A program made the position numbers and the translations under genes. 64,000 nt of DNA from an uncultured Acidobacteriota bacterium (lineage in GTDB: Bacteria > Acidobacteriota > Thermoanaerobaculia > Multivoradales > JAHEKO01), in assembly GCA_963713825.1 (NCBI GenBank), contig CAVQNG010000005.1:160001-224000 (forward strand). Direction: 5' to 3'. The notes under the pieces are model-generated. The model was not told the DNA's origin, did not search any database, and saw nothing but the letters and a program-made list of their open reading frames with translations. Shown piece by piece: positions 2,187 to 59,307 of this stretch (positions are counted from its first letter, which is position 1; each line of letters opens with the position of its first letter).

Positions 2187-2278
2187 CTTGGGGTTGAGGC
2201 ATCCGGTGCTTTGCACCGGCTGATCTTTGAGGGCTTGGGGGATGAGGCGTCTGGACTCCGTCCAGCCGATCTCTGGGG
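2187..2278. repeat. Two tandem REP-like hairpin units (locus A)
   Basis: CTTGGGGTTGAGGCATCCGG-TGCTTTGCA-CCGGCTGATCTTTGAGGG followed by CTTGGGGGATGAGGCGTCTGG-ACTCCGT-CCAGCCGATCTCTGGGG; same family as 6358, 15058, 22351 and 58696. Confidence 0.85.
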
Positions 2279-2358
2279 TAGTGGGGGAACGTGGGCCTGG
2301 GGGCTCGGACGAATCACACTTCCATGTCAACGGCACGTGACTTGCGTAGACTTGGGGT

Positions 2359-4227
2359 ATGGACTCAGCGGGTCACTCGTCCTCGTGGCGGCAGAGATTG
2401 CACTGGATCGTTGTTACGGCTCTGACAGTCCTTATTCTTGTCCCAGGCTCGGCCTGGGGTCAGCCGGCAGAGAGCTTCGGCGAAGAGGAGCGAGTCACCG
2501 CAATCGATCTGGTCGTCGCCCCGCGGGAGACCGGGAGCTCTGCCAGAAAGTCGGCCAAGGACCTCAAGCCCGAGGACTTCCGTCTGACAGTTGGAGGTGA
2601 GTCGCGGCGGGTCGTTGCGATTGGACCCCCGAGCTTTGGCAACCTGTCCGAATCGTGGCAGGTCGTGGTCTATGTTGACGAAGCTCTCTCGAGTGCATCC
2701 ACGGTGCGCTGGGCTTCGGATCTCTTGCTTCAGCAGAGTGAAGACCTTGTCCGCCTGGGACAAGTGGATCTCGTCGTTGCAGCGGCAGAGCCCGTCTTCC
2801 TGCTGCGGGGCAATCGGGACGCGGGGTTGCTGAGAAACTCCCTGGTCAGGCTCTCGGAAAGCGATAGAGGTCGTGATGATCTCACCGCTCTGCGCTCGGC
2901 GTTTCTGACTGCCTTGCACGACGACCAGGGGGCCTACGCTCCTGACGAGCTCAGGACGGCGTTTCGGGCTGAAGAAGAGCGGCTGATCCAAAGCCGGATG
3001 GACATTCTGCTCACCTTCCTGGCCGATGATGTCGTAGCCGGAAGTCGCCGGGTGTTGTTCCTGGTGAGTGACGGCTTCGATCTGGTTCCCGACGACTTCT
3101 ATGCCCTGTGGTCGAGAATCGAGTTGGGGAGCTCGGAACAGGCGACCTCCCAGGATGTAGAGATCTCCGATTCAGAACTGGCCCTCAGAGAATCCGTGTC
3201 AACGACGGCCCGAGCGGTGAGTGCTTACGGCTGGATCACTCATCCGCTCGTCGCGCCCGAGCGCCCCAGTCCTCTCGTGCCCGGTCTCAGAGTAGGAAAA
3301 TGGCGCCTCAGTGGTCCCGCCGGGGGTCGCATCATCGGGTTCAAAATCGTCCGAGAGCACCAACGAAAGAAACAGAAGGCGGAGAACCTGGTCGAGCTGG
3401 GGCTGGCTCAGCTGGAGAAAGGCGAAGCCGGAAAAGCGGAGGAGTCCTTTCGGCAGGCTCTCGTCCACTTCGCCGGAGATCCGAAGACCGCTCTAAGTCA
3501 GGCGCAGGCCTACCTCGGTCTCAGCGAGGCCCTGGCGTTGCAAGACGAAGCGCAAGGGGCCCGCGAAGCCCTGGCTCAGGCGGCAGTGCTCGATCCGGCC
3601 ATCGAAGAGGAGAACCCGGCCGCCGTCGCGGCACTCTGGGATCCACTCGAGCCTTTGAATCTGCTCGCGTTGGAGAGCTCTGGTGGGCTCGTCGCCAACC
3701 AGGAAGAGCTGATCGCCACGACCACGGACCTCGGACGACGTCTCAGACTGACTTATCAGGAGGTTGGTCCACCTCGCGGTGAGATGCAGCGGGCCAGCAT
3801 CGACTGGGCCGAGAGAGAAGGAGACTTGCGATCTCCGGCTTGGACACGATTCGGCACGCCGGAAGCCGTCGCGGCCGCCCGGGCCCGCAGCCTGCTGGAT
3901 GGTCGGTTCGCGGATACCGAGCTCGATCTGGACCTGGTGGTGCAGTCCTCGGAGCCGGGTCGAGGTTGGACTCTCCAGGTGACGTTCGAGGAGCCTCCTG
4001 ATCTGGAAGGGTGGGAGGAGAGTCGGCTCCTACGGGTAACTGTTGCAACCGCTGCGCCCGATGCGACGCCAGAGGTGACGCATCGCCTGCTGCGGGGTTC
4101 CGAGGAAGATCCTTGGCCCTTGTTCAGTAGTCAGGTGGTGACCGATGGCCCGCAGAGTTGGCTGGTTGTAGTCATGGAGGACCTGGCTACTGGCAACTGG
4201 GCTGCGGATGTTGTCGAGATTCCCTGA
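2359..4227 (+). CDS. Exported acidobacterial VWA-like domain protein with TPR insert
   Basis: Signal peptide; VVVYVD and RRVLFLVSDGFD VWA-like strands; TPR-like helices (ELGLAQLEKGEAGKAEESFRQAL). Confidence 0.7.
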   Translation: MDSAGHSSSWRQRLHWIVVTALTVLILVPGSAWGQPAESFGEEERVTAIDLVVAPRETGSSARKSAKDLKPEDFRLTVGGESRRVVAIGPPSFGNLSESWQVVVYVDEALSSASTVRWASDLLLQQSEDLVRLGQVDLVVAAAEPVFLLRGNRDAGLLRNSLVRLSESDRGRDDLTALRSAFLTALHDDQGAYAPDELRTAFRAEEERLIQSRMDILLTFLADDVVAGSRRVLFLVSDGFDLVPDDFYALWSRIELGSSEQATSQDVEISDSELALRESVSTTARAVSAYGWITHPLVAPERPSPLVPGLRVGKWRLSGPAGGRIIGFKIVREHQRKKQKAENLVELGLAQLEKGEAGKAEESFRQALVHFAGDPKTALSQAQAYLGLSEALALQDEAQGAREALAQAAVLDPAIEEENPAAVAALWDPLEPLNLLALESSGGLVANQEELIATTTDLGRRLRLTYQEVGPPRGEMQRASIDWAEREGDLRSPAWTRFGTPEAVAAARARSLLDGRFADTELDLDLVVQSSEPGRGWTLQVTFEEPPDLEGWEESRLLRVTVATAAPDATPEVTHRLLRGSEEDPWPLFSSQVVTDGPQSWLVVVMEDLATGNWAADVVEIP

Positions 4228-4407
4228 AATTCGACTGAGTTGAAATTCAGTGTCCTGGGGCTTGGGCCCTGGGTCCTGGGATTGTAGGGGAGAGGCTCGC
4301 CTTCTCCCGCGGGCGCCGGCAAAGGACTCCCCGACCCGAAGTAGCGCCAGAAGTCTGCCAAATCCGAGCGTGTGAAAGGGTTTGAAGGTTGAGGGTAAAC
4401 TCCTGAC

Positions 4408-4779
4408 GTGACCAGGATCCTGGCAATCGGTTGTGGCGGGTTCATGGGTGCTGTGCTGCGGTACTGGATCTCCGGCTGGGTCTATTCGCTCGGCCACGGT
4501 GGCTTTCCCACAGGCACACTCGTCGTCAACGTAGTCGGGTCCTTTCTGCTGGGCCTGGTTGTGGGCCTGGCCGAGCACTTCGTCATCCACCCGAATCTGC
4601 AGCCTTTCCTGACGATCGGTCTCCTCGGGGCATTCACGACCTTCTCGACGTTCTCGTTCGAGACGATGGCTCTGCTAGAGGGCGGGTCGTATTCGAAGGC
4701 GCTACTCAATGTCGGTGCCAGCGTGATGCTGGGGCTGGTGGCCGTTCTTGTCGGCCTGGTCGCGGGCCGGGCGCTCTAG
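4408..4779 (+). CDS. crcB: Fluoride efflux channel CrcB/FluC
   Basis: GGFMGAVLRY, FPTGTLVVNVVGSF and GLLGAFTTFSTFSFE signature motifs; 123 aa, four TM segments. Confidence 0.96.
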   Translation: MTRILAIGCGGFMGAVLRYWISGWVYSLGHGGFPTGTLVVNVVGSFLLGLVVGLAEHFVIHPNLQPFLTIGLLGAFTTFSTFSFETMALLEGGSYSKALLNVGASVMLGLVAVLVGLVAGRAL

Positions 4780-5219: not shown

Positions 5220-6359
5220 ATGGATCGCCGTGAATTCTTGACAGCTGGAGCCGCGGTGGGCGCCGTCGGCCTGGGCAGGTTGGTGGCTTTCCCCGATCGG
5301 TCGGTGGCCGCACCGCAGGTCGCCGGGCAAGTCGCTTCGCCGGTCGGTACGATCCGCCTGAACTCGAACGAGAATCCGCTTGGCCTCTCACCCTCTGCCC
5401 GCATGGCGGTCGAGAAGGGGATCGCCGAGGCGAATCGCTACCCGGATGCGGCACGCGAGCAGCTGGCCGATGCGCTGGCGCTGAGGCTGGGCGTGAAGTC
5501 GGAGAACATCGTCCTCGGCAACGGCTCGACCGAAATCCTCCAGATCATCGTGCAGGCTTCCAATGCTCCGCAGGGCAGGCTGGTGATGGCGGACCCGACG
5601 TTCGAGGCCATCTCCTTTTATCAGCGCACTCTGACCTACACGACCGAGAAAGTCCCTCTGACCTCCAGCTTCGCCCATGACATTCAGCAGATGAAGGACC
5701 GGGTCGCAGCCGGCAACAGCCCGGCGGTGGTCTACCTCTGCAACCCCAACAATCCCACCGGGACCCTGACTTCCAGTGCCGAGATCGATGCCTGGATTGC
5801 GGCAGCGCCGGAGACGGTCCTGTTCGCAGTGGACGAGGCCTATCTCGAGTACGTCGAGGCGCCTGGATACTGGTCGGCTCTCAAGTGGATCCAGGACCGA
5901 CCCAATGTCATCGTGGCTCGCACCTTCTCGAAGATCTACGGCATGGCTGGAATGCGCCTCGGCTATGCCGTGGCCCATTCCGAGACGGCTCGACGCCTGC
6001 GCGAGTTCCTGACCTGGGACAATGCCAACAGCCTGGCCTTGGCAGCGGGCCTGGCTTCCCTCGCCGATGAAGGGCTGGAGGCTCGCGGCAGAGCGGTCAA
6101 CGAGGTGGCGTTGACCATGACCCGAAATTGCCTGGACGAGCTGGGTCTCGACTACCTGCCCAGCCACACGAACTTCCTGATGCACAGAATCAAGGGTGAT
6201 GTGAAGGAGTACATCGGTCGGATGAGGGGGAGGGGACTCCATGTCGGCCGACCCTTCCCGGCGTTGCCTTCCTACAACCGGCTCTCCATGGGACTACCTG
6301 AGGAGATGGAGATCTGGGCGGAGACCCTGAAGGACTTTCGGAAGCAGGGATGGGTTTGA
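5220..6359 (+). CDS. Tat-exported HisC-like class I/II PLP aminotransferase
   Basis: ATG at 5220 after GAGGAG; MDRREFL twin-arginine signal; LNSNENPLG, CNPNNPTG, DEAY and RTFSKIYGMAGMRLGY motifs. Confidence 0.9.
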   Translation: MDRREFLTAGAAVGAVGLGRLVAFPDRSVAAPQVAGQVASPVGTIRLNSNENPLGLSPSARMAVEKGIAEANRYPDAAREQLADALALRLGVKSENIVLGNGSTEILQIIVQASNAPQGRLVMADPTFEAISFYQRTLTYTTEKVPLTSSFAHDIQQMKDRVAAGNSPAVVYLCNPNNPTGTLTSSAEIDAWIAAAPETVLFAVDEAYLEYVEAPGYWSALKWIQDRPNVIVARTFSKIYGMAGMRLGYAVAHSETARRLREFLTWDNANSLALAAGLASLADEGLEARGRAVNEVALTMTRNCLDELGLDYLPSHTNFLMHRIKGDVKEYIGRMRGRGLHVGRPFPALPSYNRLSMGLPEEMEIWAETLKDFRKQGWV

Positions 6360-6456
6360 GGGTTGAACCGGCCGCACTTTGTGTCGGCCGGTCGTTGGGG
6401 GCTTGGGGGTCGAAGTGTCCGGTCGTACCTCCCGGCCGATCCTTGAGGGCTTGGGG
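6358..6456. repeat. Two tandem REP-like hairpin units (locus B) between convergent genes
   Basis: GGGTTGAACCGGCCG-CACTTTGTG-TCGGCCGG...CTTGGGGGTCGAAGTGTCCGG-TCGTACCTC-CCGGCCGATCCTTGAGGGCTTGGGG. Confidence 0.85.
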
Positions 6457-6499
6457 AAACAGGGGCTCGAGATCCCAGTATGCCTAAGCCCTTACGCCC

Positions 6500-8710
6500 C
6501 TACTGAAGGTAGCCGAGAGCCTTCAATTGCTGCTTGGTCTCGTCGTCGAAGTCCATCGTTTCGATCTCGGGTAGCTGGTCGAGCTCCAGCAACTGCCGAC
6601 GTATCAGGGTGGCGAGATAGCCGGCGAGAACCGGATACTCCACGGCCAGGTCGATCTGCTCTTCGGGGTCCTGGACCCTGTCGTAGAGCTCGCGGCTTCG
6701 TGCAAAGCTGGCGGAGAGAGGCTCGATGAGCTTCCATTGGTTCCAGATCACACTCATGCCCCGTCTTCCTTCGTAGTCCAGATAGGAGAAGACAGGGTCG
6801 CCACTGGCGGCTTGCAGCCGCTTGCGATCGAGGAGCGGTGCCAAGCTTCGACCTTGCAGCTCCGTCGGAGCCTCGAGACCGGCGAGCTCGAGTAGCGTTG
6901 GCAGCAGGTCGATCTGCTGCACCGGTTCCGCAACGCGCTGGCCGATCGTGGTTCCAGGCAGCTTGAGGAGCATGGGCACCTGGATGGACTCTCTGTACAG
7001 GTCCCATCCGTGGCCCTGGATGCCATGTTCGTAGAAGCCTTCGCCATGGTCGGAGGCCAGGACAATCAGCATCTGGTCGTAGAGCCCCCGGCGACGGAGG
7101 TCTTCCAGCAGCAGTCCGAACTGGCGATCGGCGAAAGCGATCTCGGCATCGTAGAGGTCCATGAGGTCCTGGACGGTCTGCGGTGTCTTCGGGATCTCCC
7201 CGAAGGCGAGGCCACGGATGTGTTCGAAGGAGCCCGCTTCAGGATCGCTGACGTCGGGTGCGAAGGTGCGACGGTACTGCTCGGGTGGGTCGTAGGGGGC
7301 GTGGGGATCGATGGTGTGAACGTAGAGAAAGAGAGGACTCCCTGCCTCATCGCGGTCCAGCCAATCGAAGATCTGTTGGTTGACGCGATCGGCGCGTGCT
7401 GGCTCTAGAGCGAACTCATCGAAGCCCTGGCGCAGTCCGGAGTCAGCAGAGAAGTAGGCGTTGGTCGTGAAGGCGATCGTCCGGTAGTTGGCCGCCGACA
7501 GGAGCTCGGCCATGGTGGAGAACCTCGATGCGAGGCGCTGCTCTCGATGATTGACGCCGTGAGCCGTGGTTCTCAGGCCCGTGAAGATCGAAGCCACCGC
7601 GGGTTTGGTCCAGGATGTCTGGGCCATCGCGTGGTCGAAGACGACCGCTTCTTTGCCGAACCGATCGATTTCGGGGGACACGTCGCGCGCATATCCGTAC
7701 AGGCCCAGATGATCGGCCCGCATCGTGTCGACGACGTAGAGGAGAATGTCGGGAAGCCCGGCCTGGAGGCCCTCAGTCTCCACAAAACCCGGCTCTACAG
7801 CGGGCTCGCGTTGGCTCGACGGGGACTCGATCCGGGGGCCCCGAAGGAAGAGTGGGTCAGGAGTTTCCGCTTGGGCTGCAGCCAGGAACGAGAGCTTCAC
7901 CGCCTGCTCTTCGTCGAGCGGTAGATCGATTGTGACGCCTTGCCGGTTGGAGCGCAGGTCGAGCGATTCGATCAGCGTGCCACGATCGGTCAGCAGGCTG
8001 ATCTCGAGCGCGGCCGCGGTCTCATCGAGTCCGGAGATTTGGTCGAAGACTAGCCTGTCCTGAGGTCTGGCCTCAAAGTAGAAGTCGATCCCCGACCCGA
8101 AGGGCATCGAGATCCCGGTCTCGCTCGCAGTGATTTCTGAAGGAGAGGCAACCGGCTCGAGGTGGAACCGAAGCCAATCCCATCCTACTGCCAGACTCCG
8201 AGCCTTGCCGCCCCGAGAACCTGTTTCTGGCGACTGACTGTATTGATATTCGAAGGTCAGCCGATTGATGCCTCGTTTCAAGGCTTCCGCCGGGACTTGA
8301 ATCTGGTAGGTCCGGGGCCCGGATTCGAGTGAGATGGGCTCGAGGGGGATGTCGTTGAGTGTGGGACGGATCTCTTGCGTCGGGGCACCTTCGAACGAGT
8401 AGGGGAAACACCTCATTTCGAGGCCGAGATCTCGTGGTGACGAGAGAAAGAAGTGCAGCTCCGAGATGGGACCGGTCCCCCAAACGAAGGAGGTGCCAAA
8501 TGACCTCTCGTTCCAGGACCATCCAGAGTCGAGAAAGGCTCGGGCTTCCGCCGATCCGAAGTCCAGCTCAGTGGGCTCGAAATGGATGTCTGCCGTCGCC
8601 AGCTCCCCGGTCAAGGCGAATCGAGTCTCGAACGAATCGGAGCGCTGGCAGGCCGAAAGTACGACGAAAGCCACGATGGGCAAGAGGCAAGTGCGGATGC
8701 ATTTTTCCAT
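6500..8710 (-). CDS. Lipoprotein with C-terminal sulfatase-like hydrolase/transferase domain (start could be up to 8764)
   Basis: LSAC lipobox; DILLYVVDTMRADHL, SWTKPAVASIFTG, HTIDPHAPY, SDHGE motifs; C-terminal LKALGY. Confidence 0.9.
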   Translation of the reverse strand: MEKCIRTCLLPIVAFVVLSACQRSDSFETRFALTGELATADIHFEPTELDFGSAEARAFLDSGWSWNERSFGTSFVWGTGPISELHFFLSSPRDLGLEMRCFPYSFEGAPTQEIRPTLNDIPLEPISLESGPRTYQIQVPAEALKRGINRLTFEYQYSQSPETGSRGGKARSLAVGWDWLRFHLEPVASPSEITASETGISMPFGSGIDFYFEARPQDRLVFDQISGLDETAAALEISLLTDRGTLIESLDLRSNRQGVTIDLPLDEEQAVKLSFLAAAQAETPDPLFLRGPRIESPSSQREPAVEPGFVETEGLQAGLPDILLYVVDTMRADHLGLYGYARDVSPEIDRFGKEAVVFDHAMAQTSWTKPAVASIFTGLRTTAHGVNHREQRLASRFSTMAELLSAANYRTIAFTTNAYFSADSGLRQGFDEFALEPARADRVNQQIFDWLDRDEAGSPLFLYVHTIDPHAPYDPPEQYRRTFAPDVSDPEAGSFEHIRGLAFGEIPKTPQTVQDLMDLYDAEIAFADRQFGLLLEDLRRRGLYDQMLIVLASDHGEGFYEHGIQGHGWDLYRESIQVPMLLKLPGTTIGQRVAEPVQQIDLLPTLLELAGLEAPTELQGRSLAPLLDRKRLQAASGDPVFSYLDYEGRRGMSVIWNQWKLIEPLSASFARSRELYDRVQDPEEQIDLAVEYPVLAGYLATLIRRQLLELDQLPEIETMDFDDETKQQLKALGYLQ

Positions 8711-14404: not shown

Positions 14405-14893
14405 TCAGCCTCCGGCTGCCTGGCCCCCAGTGTGATCGACGTGAGCTGTCAGCATGTGCTGACCGATCCACTGCGCCATTACGGTCTCCGGAATCGAGCC
14501 CAGCTCGACCTTGAGGTCCTTCTCATGGCCGTTCCTGACGATGCTGTAGGTGACCGTCTTGCCAGGCGTCATGGCCTTGGTAGCCTCTTTGAGAGCCTGT
14601 TTGTTCTCGTCTTTGTACGCCACTCCGTTGAAACTGGCCAGCACATCTCCGGCCTCGAATCCTGCCGATTCCGCCGGGCTGTCCGGGACGACCCTGACGA
14701 TCCTCATGGTGCCGTCTTCATTCGTGTCCATCTCGATACCGACCCAGCCTCGACCCTGGAGGCTCTCGGCGTAGGCGTTGAGACACGCTGCCGCGGGTTG
14801 GTCGCACTTCTTGTGGTCGCCGGCCGTCGCCGGGATCGCGGTAACCAGAAGAACGACGGCGGCGGCAGCGATAAATACTCTATTCATCGACAT
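14405..14893 (-). CDS. Secreted PDZ-domain protein
   Basis: Signal peptide; GWVGIE and VVPDSPAESAGFEAGDVL PDZ motifs. Confidence 0.85.
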   Translation of the reverse strand: MSMNRVFIAAAAVVLLVTAIPATAGDHKKCDQPAAACLNAYAESLQGRGWVGIEMDTNEDGTMRIVRVVPDSPAESAGFEAGDVLASFNGVAYKDENKQALKEATKAMTPGKTVTYSIVRNGHEKDLKVELGSIPETVMAQWIGQHMLTAHVDHTGGQAAGG

Positions 14894-15050: not shown

Positions 15051-15057
15051 TGTAGGA

Positions 15058-15425
15058 GGGTTGAGGCGCCCGATCAGTACCTCTCGGGCGATCCTTGAGG
15101 GCTTGGGGTTGAGGAGTCCGTCGTTCCTCCGGCCTACCTTTGAGGCAGTGCCGCCCTCCCATTCCCCTATGCCCTTTATCCCCTACACCCTTCGTTCCCA
15201 ATGCCTTCAGCGGTACCTGAGGTTTGTTCGGGTGGTTCGATAGGGGGCGCCGAGTCGAGCGCAGCGCAAGGTCCTTGATAAGGCGCAGGAGGCGGGGCGC
15301 GATGACGAGACGAGGTGGCGGTCCCCCGCCAAAGTCTGTGCAACCGCCGCCGTCCGCCTGCGGACCACCCGGACGGACCTCCGCAAGATGGTGGTCATCT
15401 GCCCAGGACCCAAGCCCCAGGACCA
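15058..15425. mobile_element. Composite non-autonomous repeat element (locus C): REP-like units, C-rich tract, structured core and heptamer tail
   Basis: Two REP-like units at 15058-15145; core 15219-15381 is homologous to the reverse complement of 58779-58945. Confidence 0.7.
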
Positions 15426-15462: not shown

Positions 15463-15873
15463 ATGGCAGGAAGCAAGAACGACTCAACCACCGGCGATCT
15501 CCATTCCGACCATCTCGCCGCTCATGAGGACCACGCGGCCTGGCTGGAAGACCTGAATCGGTGGCGTGGCGAGTATCAGGCGGCACTCATGGACCTGGCC
15601 CGGCGCGTTCTGCCCGATCTCGAGCTCGAGAACTACGAGACTGCTCTGGACCGCCACGAGGCGGCCATTCTGGCTCACGAAGATCTTCTACACAGCCACG
15701 AGGAGGCGGTTGGGTTCAGCAAGAGACTCGGGGAAGGGACCTCAGAAGAGTACGAGCTGGTGCATGCCCAGCTGGACACCAGGCACGGGCGCTCCTCGAA
15801 AGCACATCAGCACCTGGAGAGAACCCACCAGGCCATTCTTCGAGCCATGGAGATGCTGGCCAGAAAGCTCTGA
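15463..15873 (+). CDS. His-rich helical hypothetical protein
   Basis: GGGGAG RBS; 136 aa with periodic His (HEDHAAW, RHEAAILAHEDLLHSHEE, VHAQLDTRHGRSSKAHQHLERTH). Confidence 0.75.
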   Translation: MAGSKNDSTTGDLHSDHLAAHEDHAAWLEDLNRWRGEYQAALMDLARRVLPDLELENYETALDRHEAAILAHEDLLHSHEEAVGFSKRLGEGTSEEYELVHAQLDTRHGRSSKAHQHLERTHQAILRAMEMLARKL

Positions 15874-22350: not shown

Positions 22351-22444
22351 GGGCTTGGGGGTTGAGGCGTTCGGACTCCGTCCGACCGGTCGTTGAGGGC
22401 TTGGGGTTGAGCTGGCCGCACTTCGTGTCGGCCCGCCCCTGAGG
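22351..22444. repeat. Two tandem REP-like hairpin units (locus D) just after the pepP stop
   Basis: GGGCTTGGGGGTTGAGGCGTTCGG-ACTCCGT-CCGACCGGTCGTTGAGGGCTTGGGGTTGAGCTGGCCG-CACTTCGTG-TCGGCC. Confidence 0.85.
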
Positions 22445-34911: not shown

Positions 34912-35011
34912 GGAAGCGCTCAGGGGCTGGTGCCTCTCGCGGTCTTCAAAACCGTAGTCCCGCGCCGGTGTCGGCGAGGGGGGTGGGTTCGATTCCCATG
35001 CGCTTCCGCCA
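34912..35011 (+). tRNA. selC: tRNA-Sec (UCA)
   Basis: 8-bp acceptor GGAAGCGC/GCGCTTCC; 6-bp D-stem AGGGGC-TGGT-GCCTCT; anticodon loop CTTCAAA; long variable arm; 5-bp T-stem with TTCGATT loop; G discriminator and encoded CCA; TAGAAT -10 element upstream. Confidence 0.97.
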
Positions 35012-35203: not shown

Positions 35204-35226
35204 TCGGTTCCCATGCGCTTCCGCCA
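35204..35226 (+). repeat. Direct repeat of the selC 3' end (att-like site)
   Basis: TTCCCATGCGCTTCCGCCA at 35208-35226 is identical to 34993-35011 (22/23 with the preceding 4 nt); followed by AT-rich TTTGTTTTCAATAACT. Confidence 0.88.
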
Positions 35227-35342
35227 TTTGTTTTCAATAACTCAGGTAGTTTTCGGTTGTTCTGTGAGCTGCCTCACTGAGCTCCTCTCCCAATACAATT
35301 GGGGCGGGTCGAGCTGTGAATTACCCGATGAGGAGCCGTGCC

Positions 35343-35776: not shown

Positions 35777-37318
35777 CTACTCGATCGTGGTGCTGCACCT
35801 GTCCGTGTCGCCGGTCTCGAAATTCTCGATGAAGATCGTAGGCTCGCCAAGGAAGGTCCACACCTTGCCGGCGTCGTTGGTGGTCAGGTCGTAGTAAGGC
35901 GCGGCGATGACCATGTCGTCATAGCCGTCGCCGTCGGTGTCGCCGGTCGACAGGGACCAGCCGAAGTAGGAGGACGCCTGGTCTCCCTCGACCGCCCAGT
36001 CTGCGTAGTCAAGCGGTCCTTCAGCGCCGAGACCATCCTCGGTACCAAGCCAGAGCAGGGTCATTCCGGCGTAGTTCACGGCACCGACAGTGTGCCCGAT
36101 CGCCCCGATCAGGACGTCATCGTAGCTGTCACCGTTGTAGTTCAGGACCCTGACATTGCCACCGAACTGGTCGTTCTCGGCTGCGCCGTATGCCAGCCAA
36201 TCGTTGTTGATCGGGTCTCCATCGACGTCTCCCAGACCGTCTGCGGAGCCATACCAGACGAGAGCCATTCCATCGTTCGTTTCCATGTGGTCATAGAGTC
36301 TGATACCTACGATGAGATCGTCGTAACCGTCGGCATCGAAATCACCGCTTGCCACGGCATTCATTGCAGATGTGCCCATTCTGGCGTCTGCCTGATCTCC
36401 CTCCGCCGTCCAGTCGGCGTTGGAAGGATTCCCTGGAGCGCCGAATCCTGTGGCCGATCCGTACCACACGAACACCTTGCCCTCGTTGGCCTGGCCGGCG
36501 TCATAGAACGGAGCTCCAATCAAGATGTCGCCGTATCCGTCGCCGTTGAGGTCACCTGCGGAACCGAGAACGGTGCCGAAGCCGGCATCGTCCCAAGGGA
36601 TACACTGATCACCCATTGCGTACCAGTCGGCGCTGGCTACAGTCGTGGTACCCACCCGCGCGTTCGATCCGTAGAACAAATACCCGTGGTTGATGATGGG
36701 CGCTGCCCCATTGCAGGCGTCGTAGCGCCGGGCACCGATGAGGATGTCGTCGTAGCCATCGTTGTCGAGATCGCCAGCAGAGGCCACCTCGAGGCCTGTG
36801 TGAGCATACAGAGCGGTCCCGGTGACTCTCCAATCCCAGTTAGCGTCTAGACCGCCATTCGATCCGTAGTAGAGGAAAACAGCTCCGTCATCTGACGTGG
36901 ATGAGTCGTAGTTCGGCATGCCGATGAGAAGATCGTCGTGGTTGTCACCGTCGACGTCAGCGGCTGCGACGGCTTCGCCGAAGTAGCCATGGGCGTTGAT
37001 GACCGGAGGATTGATGATCAGGTTGGGTGTGGTGGCCGGACCGTCTTCCGAGCCGTAGAACACCCACACCCTGCCGGAACGAACCTGGCCTGAATTGAAG
37101 AATCGCGAGCCTACCGCTACATCGGAGTAGCCGTCGTTGTTGAAGTCACCGGTTGCGCTGACCGATTCTCCGAGGAAGTTCTCCAGTTGATCTTGTTCGA
37201 AGTCCCAGATTGCGTCGGCGAGAGTGGCCCAGGCGCCGATGGCAAACGCGGCCGGAGAACTGACTAGAGAAATGAGAAACGCACCCACAAGAAGCCGCCG
37301 GATCAGCTTGTTGTCCAT
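35777..37318 (-). CDS. Secreted FG-GAP (integrin alpha-like) repeat protein; probable adhesin
   Basis: AAGGAG RBS; signal peptide; about seven GDxNxDGYxD(I/L)xxGA repeats; C-terminal IFIENFETGD motif. Confidence 0.92.
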   Translation of the reverse strand: MDNKLIRRLLVGAFLISLVSSPAAFAIGAWATLADAIWDFEQDQLENFLGESVSATGDFNNDGYSDVAVGSRFFNSGQVRSGRVWVFYGSEDGPATTPNLIINPPVINAHGYFGEAVAAADVDGDNHDDLLIGMPNYDSSTSDDGAVFLYYGSNGGLDANWDWRVTGTALYAHTGLEVASAGDLDNDGYDDILIGARRYDACNGAAPIINHGYLFYGSNARVGTTTVASADWYAMGDQCIPWDDAGFGTVLGSAGDLNGDGYGDILIGAPFYDAGQANEGKVFVWYGSATGFGAPGNPSNADWTAEGDQADARMGTSAMNAVASGDFDADGYDDLIVGIRLYDHMETNDGMALVWYGSADGLGDVDGDPINNDWLAYGAAENDQFGGNVRVLNYNGDSYDDVLIGAIGHTVGAVNYAGMTLLWLGTEDGLGAEGPLDYADWAVEGDQASSYFGWSLSTGDTDGDGYDDMVIAAPYYDLTTNDAGKVWTFLGEPTIFIENFETGDTDRCSTTIE

Positions 37319-37403
37319 TTCGATCTCCTTTCGCTCGCAAGTCTCGAAGGTGATGACAAACATCAGTCGAGCACGAACTGTACTCGGCATCTCTGCAACT
37401 CGG

Positions 37404-37520
37404 GCCTTCGGTAGCTCGGCGGTCCTGGAGTCCTGCTGGGCGGAAGGTCCGTCCTGGAGGAGACAAGGACCCGTGGCTTTGCGCCCCCGACTCTCGTCGG
37501 GTTTGCCTTTGTCGTGACAC
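37404..37520 (-). ncRNA. Cyclic di-GMP-I (GEMM) riboswitch
   Basis: Minus strand GTCACGACAAAGGCAAACCCGAC-GAGA-GTCGGGGGCGCAAAGCCACGGGTCCT...AGGACCGCCGAGCTACCGAAGG matches the GEMM core (GGCAAAC, GNRA loop, GCAAAGC, CTACCGA); lies in the 5' UTR of the FG-GAP gene. Confidence 0.9.
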
Positions 37521-42433: not shown

Positions 42434-43837
42434 CTAGTCGCCGGGCTCGGTGGCGGGAAAACCGGCGCTCGACGTCAGCCCCATTTTCCTCGCGTAGTAG
42501 CGGAACGACCGGAAGCTCATACCAAGCACGTCGGCCGCCTGGGTTTGTACCCCGGCGGCGCGATCGAGCGCCTCGGCCATCAGCTGCTTGCGAATCTCGT
42601 CGAGGTACTGCTCCAGGTTCATCCCCTCGGCCGGTAGGCTGGGAGCATCTCCGATGGGTGGGGCCGGTTCCAGAATCTGGGCTGGCAGATCGTCGGCGCC
42701 GAGAGTGTCCTCTGCGGCGAGGGCCAGCGCGCGCTCGATGACGTTCTCCAATTCGCGCACGTTGCCGGGCCAGTGGTAGCCCTCCAGGATGCGCATCGCT
42801 TCGACGGAGATCTTGCGGGGCTCGATGCCCAGCCCGGTACTGCATTTCTTGATGAAGAAATCGACCAGGAGAGGGATGTCTTCGCGTCGCCGCCGCAGTG
42901 GAGGCAGTCGAATCTGGATGACGTTGATCCGATAGTAGAGGTCCTCGCGGAAGACGCCTTGCTCGGTCAGTTGTCGGAGGTCCTGGTTGGTAGCGGCAAT
43001 GATCCGGACATCGACCGGTTCCTCCGTGCTACCGCCAACCATGCGAATTTTCTTCTCTTGCAGGGCCCGCAGCAGCTTCACCTGCATGGCGGGAGTCATC
43101 TCGCTGATCTCATCGAGAAGGAGCGTGCCGCGGTTGGCTTCCCGAAACAGCCCCTTCTTCTCACGCACGGCGCCGGTGAAGGAGCCGCGCTCATGTCCGA
43201 AGAGCTCGCTCTCGAGCAGGTTCTCTGGCAGAGCACCGCAATTGACCGAGAGGAACCGATGTGAGGACCTCGGGCTCTCGTAGTGGATGGCGCGCGCGAT
43301 CAACTCCTTGCCTGTTCCGCTCTCGCCTTCGAGCAGCACCGTCGAGTTGGTGCGCGAGACCCTCTCGATGAGCTCGAAGATCTCCTGCATTGGTCGACTG
43401 CGACCGATGATGTTGGAGAAGCGGTATTTCTGCTCCAGCTCTCGCCGCAGGTAGAAGTTCTCGTCCACCAGTTCGGCCTTTTCCAGTGCTTTCTGGATGA
43501 CCACCTTGAGCTCTTCGACGTCGAAAGGCTTCGAGACGTAATCATAGGCGCCTCGCCGCATGGCCTCGATAGCGGTCTTGGTCGAGGTGTAGGCGGTCAT
43601 CATGATCACGGAAACGCGGGAATCCTGTTGCTTGATCTCGCGCAGGAGATCGAGCCCATTGCCGTCGGGCATGATGATGTCGCACAGGACCAGATCGAAT
43701 GCGCTGTCGCGAATCTGCGTACGCCCCTCCTCGACGGAGCTAGCCGTGGTGACCTGATAACCGATCTCCTCTAGGAGCAATCGCAAGAAGTCCAGCATGC
43801 TCTGCTCGTCGTCTACAACCAGAATCCGAGCTGTCAA
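42434..43837 (-). CDS. pilR: Sigma54-dependent response regulator PilR
   Basis: Receiver domain, GESGTGKE, GSFTGA, C-terminal RSFRY HTH; in a pil cluster. Confidence 0.9.
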   Translation of the reverse strand: MTARILVVDDEQSMLDFLRLLLEEIGYQVTTASSVEEGRTQIRDSAFDLVLCDIIMPDGNGLDLLREIKQQDSRVSVIMMTAYTSTKTAIEAMRRGAYDYVSKPFDVEELKVVIQKALEKAELVDENFYLRRELEQKYRFSNIIGRSRPMQEIFELIERVSRTNSTVLLEGESGTGKELIARAIHYESPRSSHRFLSVNCGALPENLLESELFGHERGSFTGAVREKKGLFREANRGTLLLDEISEMTPAMQVKLLRALQEKKIRMVGGSTEEPVDVRIIAATNQDLRQLTEQGVFREDLYYRINVIQIRLPPLRRRREDIPLLVDFFIKKCSTGLGIEPRKISVEAMRILEGYHWPGNVRELENVIERALALAAEDTLGADDLPAQILEPAPPIGDAPSLPAEGMNLEQYLDEIRKQLMAEALDRAAGVQTQAADVLGMSFRSFRYYARKMGLTSSAGFPATEPGD

Positions 43838-43840
43838 GTG

Positions 43841-45610
43841 TCAAGCCTCCTCTGCCAATCGTGTCGGTTCTCCGGGTGTGAGTGGTAGAGCCACCGTAAT
43901 CACGGTGCCTTGCCCGGGCTGGCTGTCGACCGCCAACCGACCTCCATGTTCTTCGACAATCCTGTACACGATAGCCATGCCTATCCCTGAGCCGCCATCG
44001 AAGAAAGAGCGAAACGGGTGGAACATCGTACCGCGCTCTTCGAGGCTCATGCCCCGGCCATCATCAGTGAACCGGATGCAGTACTCCTGGCCTTCAACGC
44101 GGCCGTCGACCTTGAGGCTGCCGCCCCCCGGCATGGCTCGCAGGGAATTGCGGGCCAGGTTCCAGAAGATCTGACTGATCTGGTCCGGATCTGCGATCAG
44201 CGTGACGGACGGAGGTTCGACGACCAGATCCAAATGATGCTGCGGTGAAACCTCTGGACTGTTGATCAGTAGCTGGACATTCTCGTTCAACAAACGGGCG
44301 ATGTCGAAGCGCACGCTCGAGCGCTCTTTGGGACGGGCGAACTGTAGGAAGCTCTTGATCGTCCGGTCCAGCCTCTGACTCTCCTTGAGGATGATGTCGA
44401 GCAGCCGGCGGTGAGCCGAGTCGTCCTCGAGGGCCGTCGTCAGCATCTGCACCGAGCCGGAGATGGCGGCCAGGGGATTGCCGACCTCGTGGGCGATACC
44501 GGAGGCCAGCTCGCCAACGGCGGCAAGTCGCTCTCGGAGTTGCAGCTCGTCCTGCAGCTGGCGCCATTCCGACAGGTCCTGGAAGATGAGAATGAACCCG
44601 GTCCTGGTGCCTTCGGCGTCTGCCAACAGGGTGACGGAGTAGCCGACGTGACGCTCCGAGTCCCCTCGCTGGTAGGTGACCTCGGGCCGAACCCGGCGAT
44701 CCGGGCTGGTGAACTCCTTGATTTCGCTCCATTCCTCTTCGGTGAACAAATGGGTTGCCGCCACCGGCTTGCCGAGCAGAGCTTCGCGGCTCCGGCCGAG
44801 GATGTCCTCCGCCGCCAGATTGACGCTGGTGACAGTGCCCTCGAGATCGCAGGTGATCAGGCCGCTGGGAACGGACTCGACGATGTCACGGTGGATGACC
44901 TGCAGGTCGGCCAGGTCGAGTTGCTTCTCCTGCAGCTCCTGCTCGGCTCGCGAGATGTTCTGAGCCAGACGCGTTGTTAGGTAGGCGACCGTGTAGAAGC
45001 CGAAGATGTGAGTGATGAGGTTGTAGAACAGCCTCCATGCGGGCAGGGAAGTAGCCTGGGCCAGCTCCTGCGGCGCGAGGGTCGAGACAGAGCCAACGAC
45101 AGCTGGGAGGGCTCGGTGCAGGGTCTCTGCCGATGGCGGTATCCAGCCAAAGTACAGCGCGACGACGGTGGCCGCGTAGAGAAAGCTGGCCAACGAAGCA
45201 ACAGCAAAGCCGGTTGCCCGTTGGAATAGAGCCGAAGCGACAATGATGATGATGAAGTAGAGAATTGAAAAGGGACTTGCGACTCCGCCGAAGTAGTACA
45301 CCATGCCGGTGATCAGAAGCAGGTCACCGACGAACTGGATGAGGGCTTGCGCTCTCCAATGTCCGTGCAGCAGCTTCAGCAGGGCAATGTAGATGAGGCT
45401 GGCGCCATAGGTGAGACCCGCTAGCAGGTAGAGGAAGGAGAACTCTCGGCTCTCTTCGGCGGAGGCGAGCTGCAGGAGAAAATAGGGCAGCACCACGCTG
45501 GTGATGACCACCAGTCGAATTCCGATCATCCAGCGCAGCTGGCGCTCCAGCGCCACGAGGCTCTGAGGAGACTTGGAGTCGGGCTGCGCCGAACTGCCCA
45601 CGTTCGTCAT
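43841..45610 (-). CDS. pilS: Sensor histidine kinase PilS
   Basis: Six-TM PilS-type N-terminus, PAS domain, AHEVGNPL H-box, GSGIGM G-box. Confidence 0.9.
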   Translation of the reverse strand: MTNVGSSAQPDSKSPQSLVALERQLRWMIGIRLVVITSVVLPYFLLQLASAEESREFSFLYLLAGLTYGASLIYIALLKLLHGHWRAQALIQFVGDLLLITGMVYYFGGVASPFSILYFIIIIVASALFQRATGFAVASLASFLYAATVVALYFGWIPPSAETLHRALPAVVGSVSTLAPQELAQATSLPAWRLFYNLITHIFGFYTVAYLTTRLAQNISRAEQELQEKQLDLADLQVIHRDIVESVPSGLITCDLEGTVTSVNLAAEDILGRSREALLGKPVAATHLFTEEEWSEIKEFTSPDRRVRPEVTYQRGDSERHVGYSVTLLADAEGTRTGFILIFQDLSEWRQLQDELQLRERLAAVGELASGIAHEVGNPLAAISGSVQMLTTALEDDSAHRRLLDIILKESQRLDRTIKSFLQFARPKERSSVRFDIARLLNENVQLLINSPEVSPQHHLDLVVEPPSVTLIADPDQISQIFWNLARNSLRAMPGGGSLKVDGRVEGQEYCIRFTDDGRGMSLEERGTMFHPFRSFFDGGSGIGMAIVYRIVEEHGGRLAVDSQPGQGTVITVALPLTPGEPTRLAEEA

Positions 45611-45677
45611 GAGAGAAGTGTCACTGCAGTAGGTGATTCCGAGATTCGTCCGAGGTCGATTCTAGCTTGAAACCACC

Positions 45678-45720
45678 AAACAAAAACCCGGGTTCCGGCT
45701 GAAGATACCGAAACCCGGGT
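45678..45720 (-). terminator. Intrinsic terminator after pilC
   Basis: ACCCGGGTTTCGG...CCGGAACCCGGGT followed by a T-rich tract on the minus strand. Confidence 0.7.
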
Positions 45721-45762
45721 GGAGAATCTCTTGCGTTTGCCGATTGTCGGGCGCCCTGTTGC

Positions 45763-46965
45763 TCAGATCTGTCCCAGAATCGTGTACAGGGGCAGGTACA
45801 TGGCGGTAACGATGACGCCGATAATCCCACCCAGGACCACGATCATCAGGGGCTCGATCAGCTTGACCAGGCCGGCGACCGCTGTGTCCACTTCCTCTTC
45901 GTAGAAGTCAGCGATCTTGGAGAGCATCTGATCGAGAGCACCGGTCTGCTCACCCACGTTGATCATCTGCACGACCATTGTCGGGAAGACTCCGGTCTCG
46001 CCCAAGGGAGCGCTGATCGTCTTACCCTCTTCGACAGCCTTGCGGACTGCCATGATGGCGTCTTGAATGATGGTGTTGCCGGAGGTCTTGGCGGTGATCT
46101 CCAACCCGTCGAGGATGGGCACACCTGATGACGTCAGCGTTGCCAGGGTACGGCAGAACCGCGCTACCGCGATCTTCCGCAGCAGCATACCGATCACGGG
46201 TATCTTGAGCAGCAGGCCATCGAGCACGCGCGCTCCACGCTCGGTCTTGTGCCAAGCCCGAAGCGCCCAGATGACGATACCTATCCCTATGATGATCAGC
46301 CAGGAGTAGCGTCCTACCCACTTGCTCGCGGCCACAACCACCTGCGTCAGCATGGGTAGCTCTCCGCCCAGGCCGGCGAACAGCTGGGCAAATACTGGAA
46401 TCACTTTCCAGAGGATGATCCACACCACGACGAGGGCGATCGAAATCACGGTCGAGGGGTAGATCAGGGCCGATTTGACCTGCCCTTTCAGCTTTACGGC
46501 CTTTTCCATGTAGGTCGAAAGTCGCTGCAGAATGACATCGAGAATACCGCCGGCTTCACCAGCCGCCACCATGTTCACGTACAGGTCGTCGAAAGCCGCC
46601 GGGTGCTTCTTCATGGCGTCGGCCAGCGAGGCGCCGGATTCCACGTCGGTGCGGACCTGCCCGATGATCTCCTGGAAGCGCTTGTGCTCCTGTTGCTCGC
46701 CCAGGATCTCCAGGCACTGCACCAGAGGCAGACCGGCGTCGAGCATGACCGAGAACTGTCGGGTGAAGATCGCGACGCGCTTCTCCCCGATGTGAATCGG
46801 GAACTTGGGTAGGAGTGGAAACTCCTTGCCCTTCTCGCGGATCGAAGTTACCTGGATCTGCTGACGTCGGAGCGTCGCTACCGCAGCGTCGCGGGTGTCG
46901 GCCAGCAAGACACCTTCCTGGAATTGACCCGCTCGACCTTTGCCTTTCCAAACGAAACTCGGCAT
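45763..46965 (-). CDS. pilC: Type IV pilus platform protein PilC (T2SS F family)
   Basis: FTRQFSVMLDAGLPL, AGEAGGILD, GEQTGALDQML, EPLMIV, AMYLP. Confidence 0.95.
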   Translation of the reverse strand: MPSFVWKGKGRAGQFQEGVLLADTRDAAVATLRRQQIQVTSIREKGKEFPLLPKFPIHIGEKRVAIFTRQFSVMLDAGLPLVQCLEILGEQQEHKRFQEIIGQVRTDVESGASLADAMKKHPAAFDDLYVNMVAAGEAGGILDVILQRLSTYMEKAVKLKGQVKSALIYPSTVISIALVVVWIILWKVIPVFAQLFAGLGGELPMLTQVVVAASKWVGRYSWLIIIGIGIVIWALRAWHKTERGARVLDGLLLKIPVIGMLLRKIAVARFCRTLATLTSSGVPILDGLEITAKTSGNTIIQDAIMAVRKAVEEGKTISAPLGETGVFPTMVVQMINVGEQTGALDQMLSKIADFYEEEVDTAVAGLVKLIEPLMIVVLGGIIGVIVTAMYLPLYTILGQI

Positions 46966-46969
46966 CGAC

Positions 46970-48088
46970 TCAGCTCCTTACGGGGGCTCTGGGATTGATC
47001 AGAGCCGGATTTAGGGCCCCGGCGCCGCGGGCGATGATTTCCTGTAACTCGTCCGGGTAGGAGGACCGGGCCATGGCTGTCTGTAGGCTGATCTGGCGCC
47101 GGAAGTAGAGCGCCGCCAGCGCTTGATTGAACGTCTGCATCCCGAACTTCGCCTGACCTGCCTGCATCATGCCGTAGACCTGATGAATCTTGTCTTCGCG
47201 AATCAGGTTACGAATGGCGGTCGTCGGAATCATGATCTCCATCGCCAGCACTCGACCCTTGCCACTGGCCTTGTGGAGCAGGGATTGACAGAGAATGCCC
47301 TGCAGCACGAAGGAGAGCTGGACCCGTACCTGCGCCTGCTGATGAGGCGGGAAGACGTCGATGATTCGGTTGATCGTTTCGGCCGCCGAGTTGGTGTGCA
47401 GGGTGGCGAAGGTCAGATGGCCGGTCTCCGCGACCCGCAGGGCAGCTTCGACCGTCTCGTAGTCACGCATCTCGCCGATCAGCACGACATCGGGATCCTG
47501 GCGCAACACCGATTTCAGGGCGTTTGCGAAGCTGTGGGTGTCGGCCAACAACTCCCGCTGATTGACGATGCAGTTCTTGTGGCTGTGGAGGTACTCGACC
47601 GGGTCCTCGATGGTAACGATGTGCTCGTGACGCTCGGAATTGACGCGGTCGAGCATGGCGGCCAATGTGGTCGATTTACCCGAGCCTGTGGGGCCTGTAC
47701 AGAGCACCAACCCTCGTGGCTTCTTGCAAAGTGCCTCCACGATTGGCGGTAGGCCCAGCTCTCTGAAGCCGCGAATCTCGTAGGGAATCTGCCGGAAAGC
47801 CGCGGCGATGGCGCCCCGCTGATGAAAGACGTTGGCGCGAAACCTAGCCAGACCCTTGATGCCGAAAGAGAAATCGAGCTCGAGGTTCTCTTCGAGTCGC
47901 TGCTTCTGTTTGTCGGTCAGGATCGAGTAGGCGATCTGTTTTGTGTCGGAAGGATTGAGCGGGGGAGAGTTCAACGGCCGGAGCTGCCCGTCGACGCGAA
48001 CCTGGGGCGGTGAGTTGGTCGTCAGATGGAGGTCTGAAGCCCCCTGATCCACCATGGTCTTCAGCATGGAATTCAGAGTCGGTGGCAT
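46970..48088 (-). CDS. pilT: Type IV pilus retraction ATPase PilT
   Basis: GASDLH, GPTGSGKST, TIEDPVE, LRQDPD, AIRNLIRE. Confidence 0.97.
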   Translation of the reverse strand: MPPTLNSMLKTMVDQGASDLHLTTNSPPQVRVDGQLRPLNSPPLNPSDTKQIAYSILTDKQKQRLEENLELDFSFGIKGLARFRANVFHQRGAIAAAFRQIPYEIRGFRELGLPPIVEALCKKPRGLVLCTGPTGSGKSTTLAAMLDRVNSERHEHIVTIEDPVEYLHSHKNCIVNQRELLADTHSFANALKSVLRQDPDVVLIGEMRDYETVEAALRVAETGHLTFATLHTNSAAETINRIIDVFPPHQQAQVRVQLSFVLQGILCQSLLHKASGKGRVLAMEIMIPTTAIRNLIREDKIHQVYGMMQAGQAKFGMQTFNQALAALYFRRQISLQTAMARSSYPDELQEIIARGAGALNPALINPRAPVRS

Positions 48089-58684: not shown

Positions 58685-58695
58685 CCAGATTCAGG

Positions 58696-59116
58696 GGGTT
58701 GAGGCGTCCGGTCGTACCTCCCGGCCGATCTTTGCAGGCTTGGGTCCTGGGTTCTGAACTGATATCCGACTACTTGTTGAGGTCCGTCCGAGTGGTCCGC
58801 CGGGGGACGGCGTCGGCTACTCATGCTGCGACGGGGGGCCGCCACCTCGTCTCGTCATCGCGCCCTTATCTCCTGTGGCCTATGAAGAATCGTTGCGGCC
58901 GCGCTCGACTCGGCGCCCCCTGTCGAACCGGCCCGAACGAACTTCATAGGCACCGATAAGGGGCATAAGGGCTAGGGGCGGCTAGGGGTTGTAGGGGAAT
59001 GGCGAGGGGGCCTAAGCGGACTCAAAGGCGGGCCGGAGGGAGCGACGGGTATCAGTTCAGAACCCAACCCAAGCCTGCAAAGACCGGCCGGGAGGTACGA
59101 CCGGACGCCTCAACCC
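58696..59116. mobile_element. MITE/REPIN-like element (421 bp) with roughly 72-bp terminal inverted repeats (locus E)
   Basis: 58696-58768 versus the reverse complement of 59046-59116 differ by two substitutions and a 2-nt indel; the internal core is homologous to 15219-15381; no credible ORF. Confidence 0.85.
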
Positions 59117-59307
59117 TAGTAGTAGTCGGAGCAGGAAAGGTAGTAGCCGCACTGCGGATGTGGGCAGTAGAGCTTGCACTTGCGCTGCGCGAGCGTGCTG
59201 CCGCAGTTGGGACAGGTCATCATCGTCTCTGCGCTCGAGGAACTGGCTTGGCGCCGGTCAGGTGGCTGACGCGGTTGGCTCGTCTCTACTCGTCTGGGAT
59301 AGCGCAC
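59116..59307 (-). CDS. Small Cys-rich zinc-finger protein (HVO_2523-like); start may be ATG at 59223
   Basis: [32 protein letters not shown]. Confidence 0.75.

Follow-up and report, generated by a model that had tools for sequence, protein, structure and literature searches.

What is the conserved element of about 165 nt that occurs twice between the genes of an uncultured Acidobacteriota bacterium: a structured RNA, a mobile repeat or a plain DNA palindrome? It was picked out in a first-pass annotation of a 64,000-nt stretch of contig CAVQNG010000005.1 (positions 160,001 to 224,000; "the window" below means the whole of this 64-kb stretch), with one copy at 15219-15381 on the plus strand and another at 58779-58945 on the minus strand, and these coordinates are borne out by the sequence. 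Our analysis identifies the 165-nt core as a conserved module of an undescribed, lineage-restricted, modular family of intergenic repeats in Thermoanaerobaculia-type Acidobacteriota. As the best reading of this family, we tentatively propose a new lineage-specific structured interspersed repeat, the core of which, by analogy with repeats of other bacteria, would act as RNA when co-transcribed with a neighbouring gene.

Two copies of a structured core

The two copies share one architecture, in which a closing stem (P1) and a second helix (P2) lead to two further helices (P3 and P4).

15219..15381, plus strand: core copy A, covariance-model score 179.7 bits
15219-15239 and 15361-15381, plus strand: P1 arms of copy A
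15241-15252 and 15348-15360, plus strand: P2 of copy A
15219-15252 and 15348-15381, plus strand: combined P1 and P2 arms of copy A
15254-15262 and 15297-15306, plus strand: P3 of copy A, with a variable loop of about 37 nt
15308-15337, plus strand: P4 of copy A (AGAC..UGGCGG-loop-CCGCCA..GUCU)
58779..58945, minus strand: core copy B, the most degenerate full copy (148.3 bits, the lowest score of 11 full copies)

For each of the blocks AGGGGGCGCCGAGTCGAGCGC and GGGCGCGATGACGAGACGAGGTGGCGG, the window contains exactly two perfect matches, against 0.01 and 0.00 occurrences expected from shuffles, and the block in the 3′ arm is found there at copies A and B only. The three blocks that had been described as invariant are exact in both window copies, but across the family blocks 1 and 3 are highly conserved rather than invariant. 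The reported 21-bp closing stem with G-U pairs is present, and P1 of copy A contains four U-G pairs (alignment columns 9, 10, 13 and 23). Copy B keeps most of this stem, including the reported replacement of U-G by C-G (column 10 with 165), alongside two mismatches (A-C at 6/169 and C-A at 19/157) and one extra base. What did not survive is the picture of a self-contained core of about 165 nt: the similarity between the copies is far wider, extending over about 15056-15420 and about 58696-59116, and the core turns out to be a single module within a mosaic repeat.

A non-coding family restricted to one lineage

Relatives were sought with an exact 19-mer from the central block across 185,579 species genomes, and then with a covariance model, R1; given retrieval by an exact word, all copy numbers are minimum values. 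Neither window copy appeared among the 19-mer matches, which shows that this genome is not a representative in the collection. Twenty loci (L001 to L020) were recovered, ten of which are family copies by their flanks and R1 scores (64.5-201 bits). The remaining ten (L003, L005, L009, L010, L012, L015, L016, L017, L019 and L020) have the 19-mer alone in common, with a best R1 match of 19 bits (E 0.035), and were set aside as chance matches. The family loci belong to three metagenome-assembled genomes (MAGs), all labelled Thermoanaerobaculia or Acidobacteriota: CAMYLC01 (L001, L008 and L013), JBATEX01 (L002, L006, L007, L011, L014 and L018) and JAUWSP01 (L004).

Some of these loci hold further or altered copies. 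R1 detected a second copy in L002 (L002b, 4208-4421; 127.9 bits), with a mismatch within the 19-mer and a 45-nt insertion, a module of extra hairpins standing in place of the 3′ half of P4. Reading of the flanks revealed a variant in L007 (L007c, about 5900-6019, running to the locus end) that comprises a P1 arm and the insertion module only, and about 45 nt are missing from L011. The total comes to 14 copies in four genomes, 12 of them beyond the window and two of them deletion derivatives (L011 and L007c), which corresponds to at least 2, 3, 8 and 1 copies per genome. The 11 full copies score 148-201 bits with R1, and two variant copies 127.9 and 64.5 bits.

The element is non-coding. Gaps between copies measure 1, 2, 1 and 1 nt and are not multiples of three, variable columns are spread evenly over the three positions (24/24/23 by position modulo 3) with no 3-base periodicity, and each of the three forward frames, counted from the first base of each copy, meets a stop in at least one of the 11 copies. 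It is also absent from the databases searched. Across the whole window, only a c-di-GMP-I-GGC riboswitch and a tRNA-Sec pass the gathering score of Rfam 15, both of them elsewhere, with nothing at either core; relaxing the threshold to E values of up to 10 around both copies gave only sub-threshold chance matches, and the 10 related loci gave none. The covariance-model check thus agrees with the first-pass annotation, which had recognised no named family. The self-cleaving ribozyme families in Rfam gave no match, and the suggestion of a ribozyme-like domain or a transposase recognition structure found no direct support. ARAGORN reported the tRNA-Sec gene only, and blastn in distant mode gave no match to plasmids and phages. 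In the parts of the literature available to us, there was nothing on noncoding RNA in Thermoanaerobaculia, and the work on structured RNA motifs in Acidobacteria consists of general motif discovery that does not, in those parts, name the element.

Fold and strand polarity of the core

A consensus structure was obtained with RNAalifold from the 11 full copies (alignment A3). P1, the 21-bp closing stem, is coaxial with P2, an 11-bp helix of GGGGGCGCC with GGCGCCGUCCGCC, so that, on one strand only, a rod of about 32 bp forms with a three-way junction at its end. P3 (GUCG-A-GCGC ... GCGC-GA-UGAC) contributes eight invariant pairs below its variable loop of about 37 nt, for which no common fold was found, as single-copy folds disagree, and P4 consists of AGAC/GUCU around the hairpin UGGCGG/CCGYCR. 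The junction with P3 and P4 holds the most conserved sequence of the family: GTCGAGCGC is invariant in all 13 aligned copies, and conservation peaks in the junction and P3, not in the arms, with hypervariable loops at the junction-distal ends.

This fold is markedly polar. The consensus energy is −75.9 kcal/mol for the forward strand and −57.1 kcal/mol for the reverse, a difference of 18.8, and standard pairs fill 534 of 550 cells in the forward reading compared with 474 of 550 in the reverse. Wobble cells read forward comprise 69 G-U against 9 A-C; eight pair positions show G-U in at least three copies and none shows A-C in at least three, and direct reading of the alignment uncovered no hidden majority A-C opposition in the unpaired columns of the P1-P2 rod. 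At the level of single copies, the minimum free energy is lower for the forward strand in 10 of 11, copy B being the exception, and the forward z-score is −4.2 or below in 9 of 11 (copy B again excepted, z −0.11). Copy A reaches −96.8 kcal/mol on the plus strand (z −5.8 against shuffles) and −78.3 kcal/mol on the other (z −3.2). A one-strand-specific fold better than shuffled sequence, as looked for in a structured non-coding RNA, is therefore found across the family, copy B excepted. This polarity over 11 full copies argues for a single-stranded molecule over a plain DNA palindrome, as the first-pass annotation had supposed.

The variant L002b folds to −131.3 kcal/mol (z −7.2), with its insertion forming three extra hairpins on an extended stem and with P1, P2 and P3 kept. 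Its hairpin loops were considered as CUUG and GCAA tetraloops, an assignment that was rejected because the pairing gives loops of 5-6 nt and not canonical tetraloops.

An inner stem pairing GGGGGCGCCG with TGGCGGTCCCCC had also been proposed. It can be drawn, as two 5-bp segments separated by a 2-nt bulge, but it is not the better-supported pairing: over columns 29-38 with 105-117, 91.8% of cells are paired, 9 of 110 are unpaired and there are no alternative pair types, so that every observed variant is disruptive. The rival pairing of P2 with the P4b hairpin leaves 178 of 187 cells paired (95.2%) with seven extra pair types. Neither arrangement beats shuffles; P2 and P4b are preferred here for a slightly better fit to the family, a choice that does not amount to a result.

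Mosaic setting

Around both window cores, modules follow one order: G-rich hairpin units resembling repetitive extragenic palindromic (REP) sequences, a C-rich tract, the core and a tail. The tract lies directly upstream of the core in most family copies, and a conserved tail of about 45 nt lies downstream of both window cores.

15056..15150, plus strand: two REP-like units upstream of copy A (repeat families D1 and D4)
15151..15206, plus strand: C-rich, G-poor tract just upstream of core A, made of degenerate CCCYTAnG-like units of about 8 nt
15382..15425, plus strand: conserved 3′ tail of copy A (..AAGATGGTGGTCATCTGCCCAGGACCCAAGCCCCAGGAC), common to L001, L006, L008 and L002b
58955..59012, minus strand: C-rich tract upstream of core B
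59046..59116, minus strand: left arm of an inverted repeat of about 71 nt around copy B, formed by a REP-like unit and 21 nt
58696..58768, minus strand: right arm of the inverted repeat around copy B, overlapping its 3′ tail
2189..2290, plus strand: pair of REP-like units without a core, from the same repeat family as the core-flanking units
6357..6502, plus strand: two REP-like units, then a short C-rich tract, without a core (positions 4071-4195 of L002 match window 6387-6505)
22351..22440, plus strand: pair of REP-like units without a core

In each REP-like unit, a G-rich frame that is constant between copies (GGGTTGAGG .. TTGAGGGCTTGGGG) flanks a hairpin that is not: its stem varies, but with matching changes on both sides that preserve complementarity. 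Units occur in tandem pairs, alone or beside cores, and the core-less arrangement at 6357-6502 indicates that the flanking modules occur independently of the core. Compared with REP sequences and bacterial interspersed mosaic elements (BIMEs), the flanking units, with five further unit clusters in the window, fit the short-hairpin description, and the 165-nt core does not. The match to L006 spans 15212-15423 of the window at 89.6% identity and includes the tail. In L018, an array of the 8-mer CCCCAGGA repeated in tandem (3116-3200) begins directly after the element's tail and continues up to the contig end.

The outer repeat of copy B pairs 58696-58745 with 59067-59116 (50 nt, 98%) and 58748-58768 with 59046-59066 (21 nt, 95%). 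The resulting 421-nt unit, folded as 431 nt (58690-59120), reaches −267 kcal/mol (z −15.5). The P1/P2 arms measure 34-37 nt with 71-84% complementarity in 6 of 7 regions, the terminal inverted repeats looked for in a miniature inverted-repeat transposable element (MITE); for copy B, only the outer repeats were reported. Reading of 12 copies across their junctions revealed no target-site duplication, nor was there one where copy B's outer repeat ends. The bases beside P1 (GGTGCYA / YA..) are conserved between copies and so are part of the unit itself.

Copies from other MAGs carry an additional component, module X, a conserved imperfect hairpin of 80-90 nt with a 25-nt C/U-rich loop containing CCUCC. 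It is found 130-300 nt upstream of the core in seven copies and has no Rfam match.

L007, 2763-2850: module X
L013, 3240-3328, minus strand: module X
L008, 3178-3263, minus strand: module X
L014, 2736-2821: module X
L018, 2681-2764: module X
L011, 2736-2820: module X
L002, 2759-2846: module X

Upstream of module X, four copies (L007, L008, L013 and L014) have an outer 5′ arm that is a near-perfect Watson-Crick complement of the P1 3′ arm; in L008, positions 3296-3320 pair with 2935-2959 (25 nt, 96%). In these copies, two 5′ arms would compete for one 3′ arm. The inner P1 5′ arm differs from the outer one mainly by C-to-T changes, to which P1 owes its G-U pairs, and the coexistence of the outer arm with the G-U-bearing inner arm would constitute an alternative-pairing or nested-element arrangement. 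The window has neither module X nor the outer arm.

Evolution of the copies

The one orthologous pair of loci, L013 and L014, comes from two MAGs; the element is present at both, and 6 kb of sequence align at 94% identity. The two cores differ at 7 of 164 positions, compared with 98 of 1716 third codon positions in five flanking ORFs, so that the rate is uninformative on purifying selection apart from where the changes fall: all seven differences are unpaired or keep a pair (U-G versus U-A at 105/121). Between the same two loci, insertions and deletions affect the REP-like units and the C-rich tract, with the core and module X unmoved. Paralogues are about 72-93% identical. CAMYLC01 and JBATEX01 are closely related, and their copy sites do not coincide except at L013/L014, which could reflect mobility but equally incomplete MAGs or copies missed by the exact-word search.

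Genomic context

The window is an ordinary chromosomal region with genes for kinases, a sulfatase, a cytochrome, type IV pilus or type II secretion proteins, a transhydrogenase, thymidylate kinase and others. Transposase, integrase and reverse transcriptase domains were found neither in the window nor within 3 kb of the 10 related loci.

14405-14893, minus strand: PDZ-domain gene beside copy A
15463-15873, plus strand: 136-aa ORF without assigned function beside copy A
57239-58684, plus strand: gene for a pyridoxal phosphate-dependent decarboxylase beside copy B
59116-59307, minus strand: possible 63-aa zinc-ribbon ORF beside copy B

The putative 63-aa ORF contains two CxxC pairs and has no Pfam match, and it ends with a stop codon directly against the left end of the inverted repeat around copy B. 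Elsewhere in the family, neighbours are unrelated and include alaS, an alpha/beta hydrolase, an RF-1-domain protein, a GreA-fusion protein, methyltransferases, a gamma-glutamyltranspeptidase and an outer-membrane barrel, among others, and the gaps occupied are divergent, convergent and co-directional alike. Every copy has at least one co-directional neighbour, a situation that geometry nearly guarantees. At six loci, a co-directional gene starts no more than about 120 nt from the end of the core (copy A, L002a, L002b, L004, L007a and L013/L014, the orthologous pair being one locus here but two of the 14 copies), and eight copies lie 3′ of a co-directional gene; L002b, between two co-directional genes, is counted in both groups.

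Other features of the window were recorded in passing. The c-di-GMP-I-GGC riboswitch aptamer (37406-37516, minus strand; 72 bits against a gathering score of 59) lies just upstream of a gene for an FG-GAP-repeat protein (35780-37390, minus strand). The tRNA-Sec gene (34912-35011, plus strand; 69.2 bits with Rfam, anticodon TCA according to ARAGORN) is followed 215 nt downstream by a 32-nt, 84% copy of its 3′ end (35204-35235, plus strand), which could be the attachment-site remnant of an integrated element. Positions 42437-48088 on the minus strand hold genes for a sigma-54 response regulator, a PilS-like histidine kinase and members of the T2SS-F and T2SS-E families, a type IV pilus or type II secretion module.

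Possible function and competing explanations

If the core is a structured interspersed repeat that acts in transcripts, the reading to which we give tentative preference, it would be transcribed with the neighbouring gene, within a 5′ or 3′ untranslated region. The long duplex, a rod of about 32 bp, might then be a determinant of processing or stability, either as the target of a double-strand-specific RNase or as a barrier to 3′ exonucleases, and the conserved junction may provide a binding surface for an unknown factor. Both the transcription and its effect are proposed by analogy: ERIC, Correia, BOX and REP elements are thought to act as hairpins in the processing or stability of transcripts.

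Several results weigh against this proposal. The "conservation of structure" put forward earlier is not matched by significant covariation among the collected copies: with 11 copies, no pair changed on both sides and the 97.1% of cells paired was equalled by 483 of 500 column shuffles, and with 13 copies, two double-sided pair changes were matched by 40 of 500. One double-sided change is U-A to C-G at 22/201 in L011, and positions 9/166, 13/162, 23/153 and 107/119 pass through G-C, G-U and A-U states. Power was low, with 11-13 close copies and an effective sequence number of 0.91, and the support for a selected RNA structure is thermodynamic and asymmetry-based, not covariational. Folded alone, copy B does not surpass shuffles in stability, whichever strand is taken (z −0.08 and −0.25), and in its 421-nt unit the outer inverted repeat dominates the fold and overrides the core's P1. 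With the orthologous core changing at about the rate of third codon positions, purifying selection is not demonstrated. The argument from an invariant central block is in part circular, since an exact 19-mer from that block served to retrieve the other genomes, and the one full copy found independently has a mismatch there; L011 and L007c are deletion derivatives such as decaying repeats would give. Near the window copies, a scan confined to the sigma-70 consensus found no promoter-like site, and terminator-like sites numbered 1 against 0.5 expected.

As a possible but more doubtful explanation, the family could be a non-autonomous mobile or mosaic repeat (MITE, foldback or BIME-like), with arms and interior recognised, perhaps as single-stranded DNA, by a transposase or recombinase encoded elsewhere, and with the RNA fold as a by-product. 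Since the core is a module of a mosaic with REP-like units and long inverted repeats, a mobile or mosaic origin is as much in play as a dedicated non-coding RNA gene. The dispersal of copies among unrelated genes in 5′ and 3′ positions, the modular build with REP-like units also standing alone (at 2189, 6357 and 22351), the inverted repeats of about 71 nt and 95-98% around copy B and the second upstream arm complementary to the P1 3′ arm in four copies from other MAGs are all consistent with it, as are the deletion and insertion variants L011, L002b and L007c, the differing copy sites of CAMYLC01 and JBATEX01 (L013/L014 aside) and the core's rate of change. Mobility is harder to reconcile with the lack of transposase, integrase and reverse transcriptase domains in the regions covered and of evident target-site duplications at the ends of P1 or of copy B's repeat, and MAG incompleteness may account for the non-coinciding sites. 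Paralogues are old, yet their differences avoid pairs; gain and loss between L013 and L014 affect the REP-like units, not the core; and the excess of G-U over A-C is unexpected for a double-stranded inverted repeat. The same asymmetry makes a double-stranded DNA feature, such as a palindromic protein-binding or cruciform site, very improbable. In its favour, the long inverted arms would allow a cruciform as well, P3 reads as an imperfect palindrome in DNA and G-runs recur at regular intervals on the complement of the C-rich tract, but such a feature predicts symmetric mismatches and not 69 G-U against 9 A-C with one strand better by 18.8 kcal/mol. Chance similarity without function, which we grouped with this explanation, is excluded by the absence of expected block matches and by the R1 scores. 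An integron attC site was likewise rejected, given that there is no cassette array and no integrase domain and that the neighbours are unrelated housekeeping genes; the ends of P1 do not read as what we take to be the R″/R′ consensus of attC.

A stand-alone family of structured non-coding RNA genes, with several paralogues per genome, the junction as functional centre (a protein-binding scaffold, ligand pocket or ribozyme) and the C-rich leader as a single-stranded interaction region, seems unlikely. It would accommodate the strand-polar fold, the concentration of conservation in the junction and P3 and the hypervariable junction-distal loops, along with the neatly folded insertion of L002b, which spares P1, P2 and P3, and the placement of the C-rich tract directly upstream in most copies. 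It sits poorly with the lack of promoter-like or terminator-like signals above expectation, the non-significant covariation, the decayed copies L011 and L007c and the failure to match a self-cleaving ribozyme family; moreover, the tail and the REP-like units are conserved with the core, so the ends of the unit are undefined. Pairing of the C-rich leader with the REP-like units was examined and discarded: against mononucleotide shuffles, z lies beyond −3 in 2 of 8 cases for the C-rich tracts and in 0 of 8 for the tails, and duplex energies that so rarely beat shuffles indicate that this complementarity is mostly compositional. More unlikely still is a bolder version, a new class of structured RNA in which a G-U-bearing long stem would carry the near-invariant three-way junction (GUCGAGCGC ... 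GCGCGAUGACGAGACGAGG) as a catalytic or protein- or ligand-binding centre, with several paralogues per genome, and in which an RNA-RNA regulatory network peculiar to Thermoanaerobaculia would arise from the C-rich leader and the surrounding G-rich REP-like hairpins.

Soils and sediments harbour Acidobacteriota in abundance, but the phylum is poorly studied, and to our knowledge almost nothing is known about their non-coding elements. Genomes of the Thermoanaerobaculia type carry modular intergenic repeats that combine REP-like hairpins, C-rich tracts and a strand-specific structured core of 165 nt. Should the core act as RNA, it would be a candidate for a new post-transcriptional control element or class of non-coding RNA in an uncultured lineage; should it be mobile, it would mark an unknown transposition system. 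Under either reading, the covariance model R1 offers a handle for wider searches.

Comparison with known systems

Several groups of bacterial elements invite comparison. Orphan non-coding RNA motifs of the kind held in Rfam, including the rod-shaped 6S and Y RNAs, share with the core a strand-specific fold, a closing stem formed by the ends, a conserved multi-helix junction and restriction to a lineage; the core differs in having no Rfam 15 match, significant covariation, defined promoter or terminator, or conserved neighbourhood. The attC sites and the ends of IS200/IS605 elements resemble it in the dependence on a folded single strand that the core would have, in a polarity that arises from imperfect pairs and in conserved ends around a variable centre. 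Unlike them, the core has no integrase or Y1 transposase nearby and no cassette arrays, and its centre is the most, not the least, conserved part.

REP sequences, BIMEs and REPINs are closer to the flanking units than to the core. Like them, the G-rich units are short hairpins in which the frame is constant and the stems vary with compensation; they are found as single units, in tandem or as inverted pairs, they join with other motifs in mosaics, and their hairpins are strand-specific and contain G-T or G-U pairs. REP sequences measure 20-40 nt, and the core, at 165 nt, is much longer. Compared with REPINs, the core shows the opposite pattern, with a "spacer" more conserved than the arms, and no Y1/RAYT gene was seen in the window or at the 10 related loci.

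The comparison with ERIC (intergenic repeat unit, IRU), Correia/NEMIS, BOX and RUP elements draws on general descriptions of these elements rather than on their sequences. The core family differs from them in its unrelated sequence (no plasmid or phage match), in the low copy numbers seen (at least 2, 3, 8 and 1), in that no target-site duplication was seen and no cognate transposase is known, and in its interior: they are simple palindromes, whereas the core encloses an asymmetric three-way junction that carries its most conserved bases. In common with these elements, the family is intergenic and non-coding, 100-400 nt long and dispersed in several copies, with long imperfect inverted arms that would form a hairpin in transcripts and with positions 5′ or 3′ of unrelated genes. 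Size variants produced by internal deletion or insertion are a further shared feature, as is a modular build, which BOX exemplifies. In its setting, the element looks like the interspersed-repeat systems of other bacteria.

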